Virus record (IMG/VR): IMGVR_UViG_2541047938_000006
DNA: 64,000 nucleotides
Reading direction: 5' to 3' (one strand)
DNA from: a virus
Taxonomy: Duplodnaviria; Heunggongvirae; Uroviricota; Caudoviricetes
The stretch's first letter is position 1. Each line of letters begins with the position of its first letter. A model generated the notes under the pieces. The model saw only the letters and a list, made by a program, of their open reading frames with translations. It ran no database searches and had not been told where the DNA came from. Of this stretch, positions 41,935 to 50,202 are shown in pieces. A program made the translations under genes and the position numbers.

Positions 41935-42127
41935 TGCGTATTTTCATGAAAGGAGATCACTCAATAACTTCCATCGAGATCGGGTAATAACATTTGAACA
42001 GATCGCTGAATAACATCGATGGAGATCACTTTTGACTCATTTTGTTATTCAGTGATCTCCATCAATGTTATTGGAACTTCACAGGTGTGTTGATCTGTAT
42101 CTTTTGCCATTCCGGTAAAGGATACCT

Positions 42128-43669
42128 ATGCCAACAGTTCCAATTTCTATGAGAAAACTTAAAGAAATTCTTAGGCTTAAATACGGTGTTGGACTCAGCC
42201 ATCGACAAATTGGTCGTAGTCTTGCAATCTCCCCTTCCGTTGTATCCAGATATGCTAATCGGGCGGCTCAACTTGGCATAAAGCAGTGGCCCTTACCTAC
42301 AGGATGGGATGATACAAAACTAAAACATGCGTTCCTTCAGACCCAGGTTAAGATGAAGAAGCACTCTCTGCCTGACTGGGCTACAGTACACCGGGAACTG
42401 CGTAATAAATGCGTGACGCTGCAGCTACTCTGGGAAGAATACTGTGAGCGTAATCCAGGCGGTTTTTACAGCTATAACCATTACTGCCGGATGTACCGTG
42501 AATGGCTCAAAACCACTTCACCATCAATGCGTCAGGTACATAAAGCTGGCGAAAAACTTTTCGTTGATTACTGTGGACCTACCGTTGGCGTTACCGACCC
42601 TGAGACCGGAGAAATAAGAACTGCTCAGGTCATCGTAGCTGTTCTCGGGGCATCAAGTTACACATGGGCAGAGGCCACCTGGTCTCAGCAGCTTGAAGAC
42701 TGGGTGATGAGTCATGTTCGCTGCTTCCAGTGGTTGGGTGGCGTTCCTGAACTTGTTGTTCCGGACAATCTGAAAAGCGCCACATCCAGGGCATGTAAGT
42801 ATGATCCTGACGTTAACCCTACCTACCAGCAGATGCTTGAGCATTATAATGTCGCAGTTTTGCCTGCGCGGCCACGTAAACCGAAAGATAAAGCCAAAGC
42901 TGAAGTTGGCGTTCAGGTTGTTGAACGCTGGATCATGGCCCGAATCAGGCATGAGATCTTCTACAGCCTTGCATCGCTTAATCAGCGCATTCGGGAGTTG
43001 CTGGAAAGACTGAATAACAAAATAATGCAGAAGTTGGGTTATTCACGTGCAGAACTCTTCATCCAGCTTGATAAACCCGCACTGAAGCCTCTTCCTGAAG
43101 CCAGTTACAGTTACACCCTGGTGAAGAAAGTCAGAGTTCATGCCGATTACCACGTGGAAATCGACAAACATTACTACTCGGTTCCATGTTCGCTGTTAGG
43201 CCAGCAACTGGAAGCATGGATCTCCGGAGAACTGGTAAGACTCTTCAATCAGGGGCAGGAGGTTGCTGTGCACCCGCGCAAGCGTACTTATGGCTACAGT
43301 ACCCGCAACGAGCACATGCCTGAAGCTCATCGACAGCATGCCACCTGGACGCCAGAGCGTCTTCTGGAATGGGCGGGGCACATAGGCAGTGAAACTCATA
43401 GTTATGTGCTTCATATACTGAACTCTCGTCCACATCCGGAACAAAGCTATCGCTTCTGCCTTGGACTCCTGAACCTTCATAAAAAATACAGTAAAGCCAG
43501 ACTTAATGCAGCATGTGCAAGAGCTCTGAAAACAAAGGTATGGCGTCTGTCAGGTATTAAATCGATCCTGGAAAAAGGTCTGGATAAACAACCTGTTCAG
43601 GATCCAAAACCAGATCTGTTATCCACGATGGAACACGAAAACGTACGCGGCAGTGAGTATTACCACTGA
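42128..43669 (+). CDS. istA: IS21-family transposase IstA
   Basis: 513 aa, N-terminal HTH and DDE-type core; followed by IstB. Confidence 0.85.
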   Translation: MPTVPISMRKLKEILRLKYGVGLSHRQIGRSLAISPSVVSRYANRAAQLGIKQWPLPTGWDDTKLKHAFLQTQVKMKKHSLPDWATVHRELRNKCVTLQLLWEEYCERNPGGFYSYNHYCRMYREWLKTTSPSMRQVHKAGEKLFVDYCGPTVGVTDPETGEIRTAQVIVAVLGASSYTWAEATWSQQLEDWVMSHVRCFQWLGGVPELVVPDNLKSATSRACKYDPDVNPTYQQMLEHYNVAVLPARPRKPKDKAKAEVGVQVVERWIMARIRHEIFYSLASLNQRIRELLERLNNKIMQKLGYSRAELFIQLDKPALKPLPEASYSYTLVKKVRVHADYHVEIDKHYYSVPCSLLGQQLEAWISGELVRLFNQGQEVAVHPRKRTYGYSTRNEHMPEAHRQHATWTPERLLEWAGHIGSETHSYVLHILNSRPHPEQSYRFCLGLLNLHKKYSKARLNAACARALKTKVWRLSGIKSILEKGLDKQPVQDPKPDLLSTMEHENVRGSEYYH

Positions 43670-43680
43670 TACGGGATCCA

Positions 43681-44430
43681 ATGATGAATCATCTTTACGA
43701 ACAACTGACCGCACTTAAACTCACCGGCTTCCGTGATGCGCTTAAAAAGCAACTTGCTCAGCCGGGCACATACCAGGAGCTGGGCTTCGAAGAACGCCTG
43801 TCATTACTGACAGCAGAAGAACTAACCTGCCGTGAAAACAGGAAGGCAGAGCGTCTGATCAAACATGCACGGTTCAGACTTAATGCTGAGTTATCAAAGC
43901 TGGATTATCGTAACAATAGAGGGCTGGACAGGGCCCTCATCCGTTCACTCAGTCAGGGAAACTGGTTAACCCTGAAACAAAATATTTTACTGACCGGGGC
44001 CACCGGCAGCGGTAAAACGTTCCTGGCATGTGCACTTGGTCATAATGCCTGCCGACAGGGATACAAGGTCTACTATTATCGCCTTAAAGCGCTGATGGAA
44101 CAGTGCTATCAGGGGCATGCTGATGGAAGATACAGCAAACTTTTGACCAGGCTGAATAATAGCGATCTGCTGCTTCTGGATGACTGGGGGCTGGAACCTC
44201 TCTCATCAGAACAGCGTAGCGACCTGCTGGAAATAGTGGATCTGATGTACCAACGAGGCTCAATCATCGTAGTGAGCCAGTTGCCGGTGGAAAACTGGTA
44301 CAAAATGATCGGAGACTCCACACATGCGGATGCCATCCTAGATCGACTGGTTCATGGCAGTATCAAGATCGAACTTAAAGGAGAATCAATGCGGAAAATA
44401 CAATCTCCGTTGACCGAAGGAGATCAGTGA
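43681..44430 (+). CDS. istB: IS21-family ATP-binding helper IstB
   Basis: 249 aa with Walker A GATGSGKTFLACALG and Walker B LLLLDDWG. Confidence 0.9.
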   Translation: MMNHLYEQLTALKLTGFRDALKKQLAQPGTYQELGFEERLSLLTAEELTCRENRKAERLIKHARFRLNAELSKLDYRNNRGLDRALIRSLSQGNWLTLKQNILLTGATGSGKTFLACALGHNACRQGYKVYYYRLKALMEQCYQGHADGRYSKLLTRLNNSDLLLLDDWGLEPLSSEQRSDLLEIVDLMYQRGSIIVVSQLPVENWYKMIGDSTHADAILDRLVHGSIKIELKGESMRKIQSPLTEGDQ

Positions 44431-44515
44431 AGGTAATTTAAAAACGGTTCTGTGAAAGTGACACGAACCGATCTCCATCGATGTTACTCACCGATCTCCT
44501 TCACGGTAATACGCA

Positions 44516-45399
44516 GTGTCACCACAAATCCAGGGCACCAGAGAAGGAGAAGCACCAGCGCACTGACCGGATACTCCCGCCAGGTCAGAACGGTATTTTT
44601 CCACCATGGCATCAAACATGGCGGGCTGACTGGCGTACGCTCCCTGTTTTAAATCAAACTCGCCCTGCATCCAGACAACACAAAGTAGTATGTTTTTGGG
44701 GTTTGCCTTCAGCGCGGCCTGAGTGCGTGTCAGCAGGTCTTTATACAACGGCTTATCAACGCCCCATCGTTCAGATTTATCCGACGCTCCTGAACTTTCA
44801 CTGAACGTTCCGTCAGCACCGGCTGTAAACGCAGAGCCACCACGACAGCACGGCACTAACAAAATACCCGCATTTTCCGGCATAAAGGGCAACAGCTTTT
44901 TGGCAATATGCAATCCCTGTCCGACACACCCATACTGCTCTGCGCTGGCTTTCGGATGAGAAAAACGGCTCAAATCCTGCACATCATGCAGGCAGTGGTC
45001 CGCCGGAATGATGTCGTTATATGCACAGGCCGCACCACCCGGTGTCACCGTACTGCGACGCGCCAGCTGTTTAATACGCGGGTCCGGACGGTCATATGTC
45101 TCCGGCAGCGGCAGGCCTTCACCATACGCCATGCCGTTTGACTGTCCGGCCAGCGCAATGACAAAGTAATATTCTGGTTCAACAACAACAGTCCGGGTAC
45201 CATCTCCCCCCGGTGAAACTACCGGAGAGGTCATATCCCCTTCAGCGACTATAGCCTGGATAAATTCAGCACCATAACCCGCGTTTGAGATAATCGGACT
45301 ACCATAGGGTTGCCAGCCTTCCTTCAGTTTTTGCGTCAGTTTTCCTGCGAGGTCTGACGGCGATGATGCCCTGACCACGTCATAGTGTTTAAATGCCAT
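44516..45399 (-). pseudogene. nanS-p-type sialate O-acetylesterase, N-terminal part (DUF1737-like + esterase start)
   Basis: Start MAFKHYDV with RBS GGGAGG; region YYFVIALAGQSNGMAYGEGLPLP...CCRGGSAFTAG matches recalled YjhS/NanS N-terminal half; reading frame ends inside IS terminus. Confidence 0.8.
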
Positions 45400-45630: not shown

Positions 45631-46380
45631 TCCAACAAGAAAGCCCCTCCGGAGAGGGGCTGGAGAGTAGCGCTATGTACCGTTCATGCATGGTGCAGGG
45701 TGCCTCCCGGTGAGTTCAGTATCAGCACCTGAACCCGCACCAGAAAGGATAAGGGGTGTGACCAAACACCTGTCGCTGATATGCCCCTCCGCACAGGGGG
45801 ATTCACCATGCCATATTTTTTTAACAAACTTCCCGCTGGCCAGACAATAATCGCCAGCCTGAATTGTGAGTAACGTGGCATTTTACGGGAAAACTGTTTT
45901 CTGCAGTAAAAAGGCCCGCCGGAGCGAGCCTGGAAGGATAGCGGTCATGTGATGCCGGTTTCCCGGTAACTCAGCATCGGTATCTGAGTCAACGTTTTCT
46001 CTACTGGGTCATTTCCGATACGTTCCGCCTTCCGGCAGACTTTCATCACGTCAGAAAATATAGCACCCTGAGTAACAGGACAGTACTCAGAATTCAGGAA
46101 ACTGTGACACATCCTGCACAGAAAAGCCCCTCCGGAGAGGGGCTGAAGTATAGCCTAATTTCTGTCTGTCGCATGGTGCCAGGTGCCTCCCGGTAAATTC
46201 AGCCTGGCTACTGAATTTGCATGTTCGCTGGATCATACACTTTGCCAGATGCCCCGCCGCTGAGGGGGATTCACCACGCGATGCAATTTTTAACAAATTC
46301 TCCGGCAGCCAGACAATCATCAAGCTGTGGAATTGTGAGGTATTTAAAAATTTCGCAGCCTCTTGCCACCCGCTTTTCAC
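45631..46380 (-). repeat. Tandem direct repeat units (about 250-480 bp) at the stx-equivalent locus, each ending in an intrinsic terminator on the late strand
   Basis: Blocks AAAGCCCCTCCGGAGAGGGGCTG, GCATGGTGC(C)AGGTGCCTCCCGGT and GGGGGATTCACC...GCCAGACAAT recur at about 45640, 45905 (degenerate) and 46120; minus-strand hairpin plus U-tract at 45631-45660, 45906-45930, 46117-46143. Confidence 0.6.
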
Positions 46381-46658
46381 AAAAATCGTATGTAGAAGGC
46401 CGCAGCGTAACTATCACTGATGAATTCAGGACACCCAGAGGCTACGGCTCAGTTTGGATTGTGGCGGCCGGAATCGAACCAGCTCCCATCGGTGCGCTGC
46501 CGATTACAATACGCGCGGCGATCCGCTACATGACTAGTATTTTCACAGTCGCCTGTCTGCTAGCTCGCCATTGAGCTTCACCACAACGATAAGAGCACTG
46601 CGCACACCTTTCACCAATTCCACGAGGTCTGCGGGTTCAATGCTCTTACCTGTTGTGC

Positions 46659-46690
46659 AAACAAAAAGCCCCGACATTTCTGCCGAGGCC
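46659..46690 (-). terminator. tR'-like terminator downstream of putative late promoter
   Basis: Hairpin with two G-U pairs followed by CTTTTTGTTTGC on minus strand; adjacent segment 46385-46650 resembles, from memory, the lambda sequence just downstream of pR'. Confidence 0.45.
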
Positions 46691-46796
46691 TTTACCTAAT
46701 CTAGCCAGTATGCCGATCCTAAATATTATCGACGACCGAGGTAAATCAGGATTTCTCTTTCGCTTCTCAGTGCGCTTTTGCTCCGAGCATACACAA

Positions 46797-46825
46797 AACA
46801 TACTACTTTCATTTCTCGAAAGCAA
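46797..46825 (-). promoter_or_regulatory. Candidate late promoter pR' (TTGCTT-17-TATGTT)
   Basis: Sigma70-like -35/-10 with 17-bp spacer between Q-like gene stop and tR'-like terminator. Confidence 0.3.
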
Positions 46826-46849
46826 CGCATTTACAAAAAATATTTTGCA

Positions 46850-47464
46850 TCATCCAGCAATCACTAGAAGTTCTTTCTCCAATTCTCGCTTCATTGCATA
46901 AAACATTTCTGAATCAAGGACCCTCTCGCACCACACGACCCGCCTCCGGCAATACTGAATATCAACTCCTGTTATCTGAGAAATCATCCTGGCGATATCT
47001 TGCGTGCTGTCGCGATTGCAATATCGCCTAATAGCTACATCACGGACAGGGCTTTCACGATGAAAGGTCTCAACCATCACACGTTCAACGAAAGCAGCAT
47101 CATCGGATTCTTTGGCGAGAGCAATGATATTACCTGCCGATGACTGAGGGATGACCAGTTCTCGGGCTTTCTGATGGAGTTCATCTCCACGTAGTCCGTC
47201 TTCTTCATACAGACGCATGACAACAGACTCAATCTGCTTAGCTTTGTCATCGCTCCACTGACTGCGAATCATCAGTCGCCCAATAACGTTAATTGCACCA
47301 CAAGGAGAATCATCACCAGCGTTAACATTTCCCCATACCTGTAGCATGTAGTGAACCCATGCTTTCTGACGAGAGTTAATGATTTTCTTCGGATGCCTCC
47401 ATATGCGGCGGAAATGAGCATCATTAATAAAGTTAACCATGCCGAATACTGGGGTTAGCCGCAT
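46850..47464 (-). CDS. Putative late-gene antiterminator (Q-like by position)
   Basis: About 205-aa ORF immediately upstream of the pR'/tR' region and downstream of nin genes; start ATG overlaps upstream stop (TGATG); no recognisable similarity to lambda Q. Confidence 0.4.
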   Translation of the reverse strand: MRLTPVFGMVNFINDAHFRRIWRHPKKIINSRQKAWVHYMLQVWGNVNAGDDSPCGAINVIGRLMIRSQWSDDKAKQIESVVMRLYEEDGLRGDELHQKARELVIPQSSAGNIIALAKESDDAAFVERVMVETFHRESPVRDVAIRRYCNRDSTQDIARMISQITGVDIQYCRRRVVWCERVLDSEMFYAMKRELEKELLVIAG

Positions 47465-47706
47465 CACAGCCCCCATCCTTTACAATGACACCACACTTCA
47501 AACATTCGTTTCACAACTTCACGGCAGTAGAAACCGTCAGCATCACGTGTCAGGTCATAGCGATCTCCGTGCTTCAGTCTCATATAGCATTCGAATAATC
47601 TGTTCATATACTCTTCGCCATGAACTCCGCTATTACGCTGCTCATGCGCTTTTCCAGACGACCTGAATAAAGCCATGCGTTCAGGCACCTGCTGAATATC
47701 ACGCAT
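47464..47706 (-). CDS. Hypothetical protein; N-terminus MRDIQQV resembles start of 933W-type Q
   Basis: 81-aa reading frame starting MRDIQQVPER (recalled Q933 starts MRDIQ.VLERWGAW) then diverging; overlaps ninH stop. Confidence 0.3.
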   Translation of the reverse strand: MRDIQQVPERMALFRSSGKAHEQRNSGVHGEEYMNRLFECYMRLKHGDRYDLTRDADGFYCREVVKRMFEVWCHCKGWGL

Positions 47707-47899
47707 CAGTAGCTTTCCCCTTATCCCATCCACGATGAACCATAAGGACACCGTTGACGACGGCGTGCCGTTTGCCTTCTTTATCACCGACATATTTTCT
47801 GACCGTAGCACGATTACAGTTCAGTTTTCGTGAAACTTCAGTCATATTGCCTCGTGCCTGGATAAGCAATTCCGGTATTGTTTGAATTGTGGCGTTCAT
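47699..47899 (-). CDS. ninH: NinH
   Basis: 66 aa; TIPELLIQARGNMTEVSRKLNCNRATVRKYVGDKEGKRHAVVNGVLMVHRG matches recalled lambda NinH. Confidence 0.8.
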   Translation of the reverse strand: MNATIQTIPELLIQARGNMTEVSRKLNCNRATVRKYVGDKEGKRHAVVNGVLMVHRGWDKGKATDA

Positions 47900-48258
47900 A
47901 TGTTCTCCAGTTCGGTGATTTTTATCCCCACTCTACCGCCAAGCACTTTCACGCCGCGAATTACGCGAATGTCATCGAATTGCACGTCGTCTTCCGCAAA
48001 TCCGGCGTGGATAAGAGAGTCGAGTAAACCTTTCAGGATGTTATCGAGGTCGCGACGGCGGGAATCTGGTGGTTCAGCAATAATTGTGATGCGAAGTCGT
48101 GATTTAGTGAAAATGTCTAATCTGAGTTGCCGGATGATTTGCTGTACGTCTTTTCGGTATTTCTGGCCTTTATCGCTGATGTAGTACTGGCTTCCCCGTC
48201 TTCGCCAGTAGGTATTCACCGTCGGCGGCCAGGGAAGCACAAACTCATATTCATTCAT
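47896..48258 (-). CDS. rusA: Holliday junction resolvase RusA
   Basis: 120 aa; MNEYEFVLPWPPTVNTYWRR... and conserved acidic residues typical of RusA. Confidence 0.85.
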   Translation of the reverse strand: MNEYEFVLPWPPTVNTYWRRRGSQYYISDKGQKYRKDVQQIIRQLRLDIFTKSRLRITIIAEPPDSRRRDLDNILKGLLDSLIHAGFAEDDVQFDDIRVIRGVKVLGGRVGIKITELENI

Positions 48259-48548
48259 GACTTAATCTTCCCCTCCTTCAGCAATATCGCCAGCGTCCTG
48301 ATCACGCCTTCCAGGTGGTAAAGTCTGGCGTCGTTGTTGTCGAGAATGCGAGTACGGCGATCGATTTCATTATGGCAGTCACTACAGGCCCATGCAGCCA
48401 ACAGATCATCTGGCTTTGTTCCCGTTCCGCAAATTCCAGCCATTCGGTAATGCGCCAGAACTGTAGTTTCAGGGTTGCCATTGCATACGCCATAAATCCG
48501 TACCTGGCATTCTCTGCCGCGCGCTTCTTTGCGTAGGTTTGTCATCAT
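48255..48548 (-). CDS. YbcO-like (DUF1364) putative nuclease
   Basis: Cys-rich about 97-aa protein between ninE and rusA, same order as in DLP12-type nin regions. Confidence 0.55.
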   Translation of the reverse strand: MMTNLRKEARGRECQVRIYGVCNGNPETTVLAHYRMAGICGTGTKPDDLLAAWACSDCHNEIDRRTRILDNNDARLYHLEGVIRTLAILLKEGKIKS

Positions 48549-48568
48549 CTTATTCCTCATGCAGTAGG

Positions 48569-48760
48569 CTATCCGGAGTGACAATTAAATCTTGCTCGAC
48601 GCCTTAGCCACCGGATATCCCACAGGTGAGCCGTATAGTTGAAGGTTTTAACATCAGATTCTTTGGGGACTGGCCTGGGTTTATTTCGGGAGCGTTTGGT
48701 TGGAAGGTAATTGCAGTTTTCACAGACGATATCGGTGATGCTTCGTCGCTGTCGTCTCAT
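48569..48760 (-). CDS. ninE: NinE
   Basis: 63 aa; [27 protein letters not shown]...[16 protein letters not shown] matches recalled lambda NinE. Confidence 0.75.
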
Positions 48761-49896: not shown

Positions 49897-50202
49897 AACG
49901 ACCTCGCGTTTCGATAATTTTTACCTCACCACCTTCAGGTGCTAATCATCGTGGTGGCGAACTGTGCGGGGTTAGCACTACCGGTCGAAACATCCGGCGA
50001 GCCTTTCGGCTCCCCCACACAGCCCGCCATAAATCGCGAATGTGACTGTGCTTAGCGCATAAAAAAACCGCCAGCGCGGTTATGCACCGTTTCGATATCC
50101 GGGGTGCTAATCCCGACGCCAGATTTTGCTGGCGTGCGAAGAATATAATCCCGGATATGTGTTGTCGTCAACATACCTTGAATGTATATAACAAATTTGT
50201 TA

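Follow-up and report, generated by a model that had tools for sequence, protein, structure and literature searches.

The described systems closest to the one considered here are the late-gene switch of lambda, with its arrangement pR'-6S RNA-tR', and that of phage 21, whose Q protein (family PF06530) is available as solved structures (PDB 6P18, 6JNX). The model published for Q21 comprises a binding element located between the −35 and −10 hexamers and a −10-like pause element (PMC6606751). In phages of the P22 type, the late operon has transfer RNA (tRNA) genes at its 5' end (PMC8022706). In this study we analysed the late-control interval of a member of the Caudoviricetes (IMG/VR record IMGVR_UViG_2541047938_000006), within a stretch of 64,000 nucleotides (nt) referred to below as the window. 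In this interval a gene coding for a protein of 204 amino acids (aa) is followed by a pR'-like promoter and a tR'-like terminator. All of its features lie on the minus strand, in which direction the prophage reads. The order, going down in coordinates, is a YbcO-family nuclease gene, rusA, ninH, a Q-gene stub with a 47-aa open reading frame (ORF), the 204-aa gene, promoter and terminator, then a non-coding block extending to about 46357, three STnc100-type elements and a sialate-esterase gene. A first-pass annotation made from the sequence alone had taken this for the late control region of a lambdoid prophage, which is borne out by the gene order, the Q21-like fold predicted for the protein, the terminator, and the promoter and leader conserved and inherited together with the gene. 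We consider it very likely that a 933W-like lambdoid prophage controls its late genes from this interval, through a standard Q-type switch. What is new is a Q type left unannotated so far, to which a Q21 fold can now be assigned; the rest of the switch is ordinary lambdoid biology. Its elements are as follows.

46850-47464, minus strand: putative Q-like late-gene antiterminator, 204 aa, with a divergent, predicted Q21 fold
46797-46825, minus strand: pR'-like late promoter, with −35 TTGCTT (46825-46820), a 17-nt spacer (46819-46803) and −10 TATGTT (46802-46797)
46755-46796, minus strand: conserved initial transcribed region, holding the −10-like element TATGCT (46791-46786)
46659-46689, minus strand: tR'-like intrinsic terminator, with an 8-base-pair (bp) stem (46689-46682 with 46675-46668), the 6-nt loop AGAAAU and UUUUUGUUU at 46667-46659

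The 204-aa protein is assigned to phrog_753, labelled "anti-termination protein Q-like", and a protein search returned 214 homologs spread over Enterobacterales. All but one of the homolog names listed are "hypothetical" or "uncharacterised", with a single UniRef entry given as "DUF1133 family", and the Prokaryotic Genome Annotation Pipeline (PGAP) also calls the protein hypothetical. No significant sequence match to PF06530 was obtained: the family was touched by only 4 of 30 homologs (best E = 0.032), and hhalign gave a probability of 23% with E = 9e-4. When solved structures were searched by sequence only, the best match was a spurious one to ERp29 (E = 0.0015-0.005), which was discarded, while Q21 was found merely at E = 1. 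Since sequence searches gave no usable link to a solved structure, a structure comparison was required, and the predicted structure of the 204-aa protein has the three-dimensional fold of Q21, even though the two proteins are only about 13-15% identical and the one from the window is 40 residues longer. The gene also occupies the position typical of Q21-family antiterminators, closing the nin region, with the late promoter and the lysis genes directly after it. By sequence, the protein thus stands outside the Q families recognised by Pfam, and its modelled structure makes it a relative of phage 21 Q.

The promoter TTGCTT-17-TATGTT is located where the first-pass annotation had placed it, and its support comes from the comparison with relatives. 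The comparison set consisted of 80 IMG/VR loci with relatives 82-100% identical at the protein level, together with Salmonella phage UPF_BP1 (84%), and 57 distinct downstream sequences were compared. All 57 have TTGnnn, exactly 17 nt, TAnnTT, 5 nt and T(A/G)(T/G)GCTCGG; the search pattern itself demanded these features, yet none of the sequences failed. The −10 hexamer is found as TACATT, TATTTT, TATATT, TAAATT, TAAGTT or TATGTT, only the two middle positions varying. Mean column conservation is 0.73 from the stop codon to the −35, then rises to 0.89 for the spacer and 0.93 for the −10. About 36 nucleotides at the start of the transcript reach 0.90, and these three stretches form a peak above the last 150 coding nucleotides (0.87); beyond 46755 the value drops to 0.67. 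The similarity to UPF_BP1 stops at 46758, and about 40 nt into the transcript the relatives diverge into unrelated leaders. Five of them (L041, L060, L062, L063 and L085) share the Q type, the promoter and some 40 nt of leader before continuing into a body resembling lambda 6S RNA, a switch which marks a recombination boundary right after the presumed Q-utilisation (qut) site. As the gene, the promoter and the first 40 nt are conserved while the remainder is variable, they behave as one inherited unit with an exchangeable rest, and such a unit is what Q/qut specificity predicts and is its signature. The spacer (46819-46803) is a candidate Q-binding element and TATGCT (46791-46786) a candidate sigma-dependent pause site. 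The latter starts 5 nt after the −10, and the pause-inducing AACGAT of lambda pR' starts 6 nt after its own, so that the placement of the two is similar. The conserved spacer, TATGCT at approximately +1 and the terminator are all co-inherited with the Q-like gene.

The hairpin terminator that the first-pass annotation had noticed downstream of the Q-like gene is confirmed at 46689-46659, with its 8-bp stem and UUUUUGUUU. The hairpin region has a folding energy of −12 kcal/mol, and the folding z-score of the 148-nt leader is −3.2. A terminator scan of the window did not list this hairpin. In 55 of 57 relatives the −10 is followed, at a distance of 68-204 nt (median 73), by an intrinsic terminator, and the position in the window equals that of the annotated tR' of HK75 and of the end of lambda tR'.

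By analogy with lambda and phage 21, from which the pause, the binding site and antitermination itself are taken over, the 204-aa protein would be the Q-type antiterminator of this phage, and the switch would work as follows. RNA polymerase would start constitutively at TTGCTT-17-TATGTT, near 46790, and would pause almost at once, sigma-70 binding again to the −10-like TATGCT where the transcript begins. In the absence of Q, the polymerase would stop at the hairpin and U-tract of 46689-46659, and a leader RNA of about 125-130 nt would be released. Once accumulated, the Q-like protein would bind a site in the conserved spacer or in the initial transcribed region and load onto the paused polymerase, which could then read through this terminator and later ones, into the tRNA-like RNA described below, the STnc100 small RNAs (sRNAs), the esterase gene, the lysis genes and the virion genes.

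The layout of promoter and leader fits the published Q21 model, although their sequences are unrelated to those of phage 21 pR', and the TGAGCA direct repeat which forms the Q21 binding site, considered as a candidate here, is absent (PMC6606751). Compared with the lambda arrangement, the logic and the position are the same, but the Q protein family, the promoter, the leader RNA and the terminator hairpin are all non-homologous, homology beginning only at the U-tract of tR' and continuing from there onward. The leader is also shorter than that of lambda, which measures 194 nt.

Several observations weigh against reading the interval as a functional Q-type switch. The 204-aa protein has no Pfam family at E ≤ 0.01 and no NCBIfam match, and its structure model is of only moderate quality (predicted local distance difference test score of 76), with two disordered loops. 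The promoter hexamers agree with the sigma-70 consensus at 3/6 (TTGCTT) and 4/6 (TATGTT) positions, that is 7/12 in total, and a consensus scan with a threshold of 9 of 12 did not return the site. Considering that the site lies below this threshold, and that promoter-like sites were no commoner in the scan than in shuffles, the promoter is no better than chance on the window sequence alone. This lends some credit to the idea that the hexamers are not a promoter at all, that the late genes are reached from the early rightward operon, and that the conserved stretch is for example an mRNA 3' end or a small-RNA signal. Such an explanation is very unlikely, given that the spacing is invariably 17 nt, that the outer −10 positions are kept in the 57 sequences while the middle ones vary, and that the arrangement equals the annotated pR'/tR' of HK75 and lambda. 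It must be added that the relatives are all at least 82% identical at the protein level, so shared ancestry could explain part of the non-coding conservation. No convincing Q-binding repeat could be assigned in the window lineage either: the direct repeat CGAA(A/G)T is clear in most relatives, whose spacer reads CGAAAT/CGAAGT, but it is degenerate here (AGAAAT/GAAAGT). The 204-aa protein could in principle be a promoter-specific activator or a sigma-like factor that directly switches on a weak late promoter, which would be very unlikely in view of the terminators and of the conservation of the transcribed region.

A further possibility is that the module is an inactive relic in a defective prophage. 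The first large late gene of this prophage is broken: an IS21-family element at about 41935-44494 (plus strand), with istA-like (513 aa) and istB-like (249 aa) genes (ORFs 42128-44430), splits the SASA/DUF1737 esterase gene and leaves an N-terminal ORF of 313 aa, compared to 657 aa in an intact prophage. The Q-gene stub also records a past rearrangement. On the other hand, 46300-47950 (1651 bp) is 100% identical to Escherichia phage PhiR5_2, whose 61.5-kb genome was deposited as complete (host E. coli K-12 MG1655), and the rest of the window is colinear with it at 94-99%, except for the insertion and a differing immunity region. Furthermore, an insertion in a late accessory gene leaves the switch itself intact. 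We therefore regard a relic as unlikely, and retain the reading of the interval as the late-gene control module of a 933W-like prophage. PhiR5_2 has a 933W-like gene order, with lysis genes downstream of the Q-like gene, and its annotation contains no toxin gene and no Q candidate besides the 204-aa gene. The whole 1.65-kb configuration is found in only 18 of 5,426 complete E. coli genomes.

The first-pass annotation had also suggested that about 270 bp resemble the lambda sequence just downstream of pR', and had proposed an alignment to the Q/pR' regions of lambda and 933W. A resemblance to lambda does exist, in three blocks totalling about 160 nt, but it lies downstream of tR' and its similarity starts at the U-tract of the terminator. 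Window positions 46667-46637 correspond to lambda 44777-44807 (90%), 46600-46577 to lambda 44844-44867 (87.5%) and 46463-46359 to lambda 44936-45039 (86.7% over 105 nt), while the middle of this post-tR' block, about 115 nt long, is unrelated to lambda. HK75, by comparison, matches the entire 46667-46354 (315 nt) at 92.7%. From promoter to terminator (46830-46668), no alignment to lambda pR' or 6S RNA was found, so that homology with a lambda-type pR'/6S was set aside; the corresponding lambda interval is about 44560-44776. The alignments thus place the lambda-like DNA in the block following tR' and not next to pR', and indicate that the promoter, the initial transcribed region and the terminator belong to the non-lambda module of the 204-aa gene. 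With respect to 933W, a Q start of its type was found at 47706-47677, as presented below. The post-tR' block is made up of the following features.

46579-46658, minus strand: long hairpin directly after the terminator, from the lambda/HK75 alignment and RNA folding, with conserved arms and a variable loop
46458-46587, minus strand: tRNA-shaped RNA gene, 130 nt, the non-lambda centre of the block
46359-46463, minus strand: 3' part of the conserved block, homologous to lambda 44936-45039

The acceptor-like stem of the tRNA-like RNA takes its 5' strand from the 3' end of the 3' arm of the long hairpin (GUUGUGGUG); as this sequence is common to both, the two structures are mutually exclusive.

The tRNA-shaped RNA is the most novel item of the region and the one most worth attention. 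It consists of a 9-bp acceptor-like stem, a D arm, a 4-bp helix with a long covarying hairpin replacing the anticodon arm, a 5-bp hairpin and a T arm. The hallmarks of a tRNA that it carries are the acceptor stem, the D arm and the T arm with its UUCGAnU loop, which covary, but the acceptor-like stem has 9 bp compared to 7. With the Rfam tRNA model (RF00005) it reaches 26.5 bits, short of the gathering score (29), 74 nt being inserted where a tRNA has its anticodon arm, and ARAGORN found no tRNA gene at 46587-46458; a genuine tRNA gene in the interval is ruled out by these two results and by the lack of an anticodon arm. Covariation is strong: in 25 distinct copies, 92.9% of cells pair in the tRNA-shaped fold and compensatory changes are seen at 15 pairs, compared to at most 5 compensatory pairs when the structures are slid by 1-3 columns. 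The observed value was attained by none of 500 shuffles on four of five measures. The extra invariant hairpin (AUCGG-CAGCGCA-CCGAU) is uninformative for covariation, being fixed by the search pattern. With the pattern derived from it, at least 120 copies were found in IMG/VR, and BLAST gave 92 GenBank phage records carrying the RNA, among them a P22-like phage, Pantoea phages and Skate-like Salmonella phages, which we take to be virulent. At least 72 of the 120 copies have a Q gene upstream of them in the same orientation, which is of lambda type for 29, of Q21 type for 36 and of the type found in the window for 7, that is, downstream of Q genes of three unrelated families. Eight of the 120 adjoin an N-like gene, some of them in P22-like phages. 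Several lineages have ACCA after the acceptor-like stem, and lambda retains the 9-bp stem with a different interior.

The spot directly after tR' is also the one in which P22-like, Sf6-like and Stx (Shiga toxin) phages have their late-operon tRNA genes, and relatives of the window carry genuine tRNA-Asn, tRNA-Thr or tRNA-Phe genes there. The window instead holds a tRNA-shaped RNA without an anticodon arm, rejected by tRNA finders, as does HK75 with its 130-nt element. No Rfam family exists for it, and literature searches for a tRNA-like RNA in lambdoid late leaders turned up only ordinary tRNA genes for this slot. We tentatively propose, at somewhat less than an even chance, that 46587-46458 represents an undescribed family of phage tRNA mimics, moving as a cassette among leaders of antiterminated operons. 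They would act in trans, for example by serving host tRNA-directed enzymes or defence nucleases as decoys or substrates, or they would be processing signals punctuating the late transcript.

Upstream of the Q-like gene, the 81-codon frame had been described as starting with MRDIQQV like a 933W-type Q before diverging, from which a recombination joint at the start of the antiterminator gene was suggested. The frame was resolved by alignment to the Stx-type phages POCJ13 and PhiR12_3 and to the phage-21-type Q gene of HK75, and the features involved are the following.

48255-48584, minus strand: YbcO-family nuclease gene, first in gene order
47896-48258, minus strand: rusA, following the YbcO-family gene
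47699-47899, minus strand: ninH (Pfam PF06322, E = 3e-29)
47464-47706, minus strand: "81-codon frame" (80 aa), with its ATG at 47706 and its stop at 47464, a composite of Q remnant and small ORF
47615-47706, minus strand: 5' remnant of a displaced Q21/933W-family antiterminator gene, about 90 bp, in two parts
47464-47607, minus strand: conserved 47-aa Cys-rich ORF (MNRLFECYM...), phrog_3871, a stand-alone gene in relatives

The resemblance of the frame to 933W-type Q is real: Q proteins of Stx-phage type start with MRDIRQVLERWGAW or MRDIQQVLERWGAW, and 47706-47677 is a 933W-type Q start (MRDIQQV.E), with which the ninH-Q alignments to Stx-type phages (81-87%) come to an end at 47677. The next 65 nt (47679-47615) are 95.4% identical to nt 72-136 of the HK75 phage-21-type Q gene, and are read in a different frame because of an 8-bp deletion inside the conserved motif coding for LERWGAW; the original frame still spells AWLYSGRLEKRMSSVIAEFM, followed by a stop. 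The frame matches phrog_17609 over its full length, while residues 35-78 match phrog_3871, and PGAP annotates only the 47-aa version, the stop of which overlaps the ATG of the Q-like gene as TGATG (translational coupling). From 47608 on, the window matches six relatives (L016-L020 and L030) at 82-84%, in which the 47-aa ORF comes directly after rusA via an ATGA overlap, with neither ninH nor Q stub. Compared to them, the window lineage has an extra 286 bp (47893-47609), made up of ninH and about 90 bp of the old Q gene. Upstream of the same Q type, at least 8 unrelated small ORFs are found in other relatives, which indicates that on its left the Q-like module extends no further than its own start codon. 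Together with the neighbour in UPF_BP1, which is non-homologous, these ORFs also rule out that the 81-codon ORF is a partner subunit of Q or a split part of it.

A joint does therefore exist, but where the first-pass annotation had put it at the beginning of the working antiterminator gene, the alignments place it inside the 90-bp or so remnant of a displaced phage 21/933W-family Q gene. A phage having a Q of that family contributed a rusA-ninH-Q segment, which was joined to a module composed of the 47-aa ORF, the Q-like gene and the promoter, an event that left some 90 bp of the former Q gene behind, fused in frame to the 47-aa ORF. Like other lambdoid mosaic boundaries between the nin region and the Q gene, this is a module junction, with different genes upstream of the same Q type. 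Unlike in a clean exchange at a gene boundary, the joint is intragenic and leaves a frame-shifted Q stub fused to a small ORF.

A few further RNA elements were observed in the window. Between the post-tR' block and the esterase gene lie three tandem elements of the STnc100 sRNA family, each closed by a terminator-like hairpin.

46116-46309, 45905-46080 and 45631-45840, minus strand: STnc100-family sRNA elements (Rfam RF02076)

Two of the copies score 138.7 and 129.9 bits (gathering score 47), and the diverged middle copy scores 30 bits, below threshold. A 2026 preprint ties STnc100 to PasD sRNAs and esterase genes. Elsewhere, 49950-50148 (minus strand) has Rfam matches to C4 antisense RNA, to its a1/b1 target and to the Hfq-binding RNA isrK, directly upstream of a gene for a 224-aa antirepressor-like protein (49896-49222), which suggests an antirepressor module under antisense control of the P1/Gifsy type. 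A match to sRNA-Xcc1 (69 bits, above the gathering score) was found at 2528-2616 (plus strand).

The switch as such is textbook biology, and what proves useful is the annotation. A widespread protein of enterobacterial prophages, "hypothetical" in RefSeq, becomes readable as a late antiterminator with a predicted Q21 fold and with a promoter-leader signature, which helps in predicting where late operons start, also in the setting in which toxin genes are carried by Stx-type phages. A clear and datable case of antiterminator module swapping is provided by the Q-gene stub. Should the tRNA-shaped RNA turn out to be undescribed, it would be a new structured RNA in the leaders of antiterminated phage operons.
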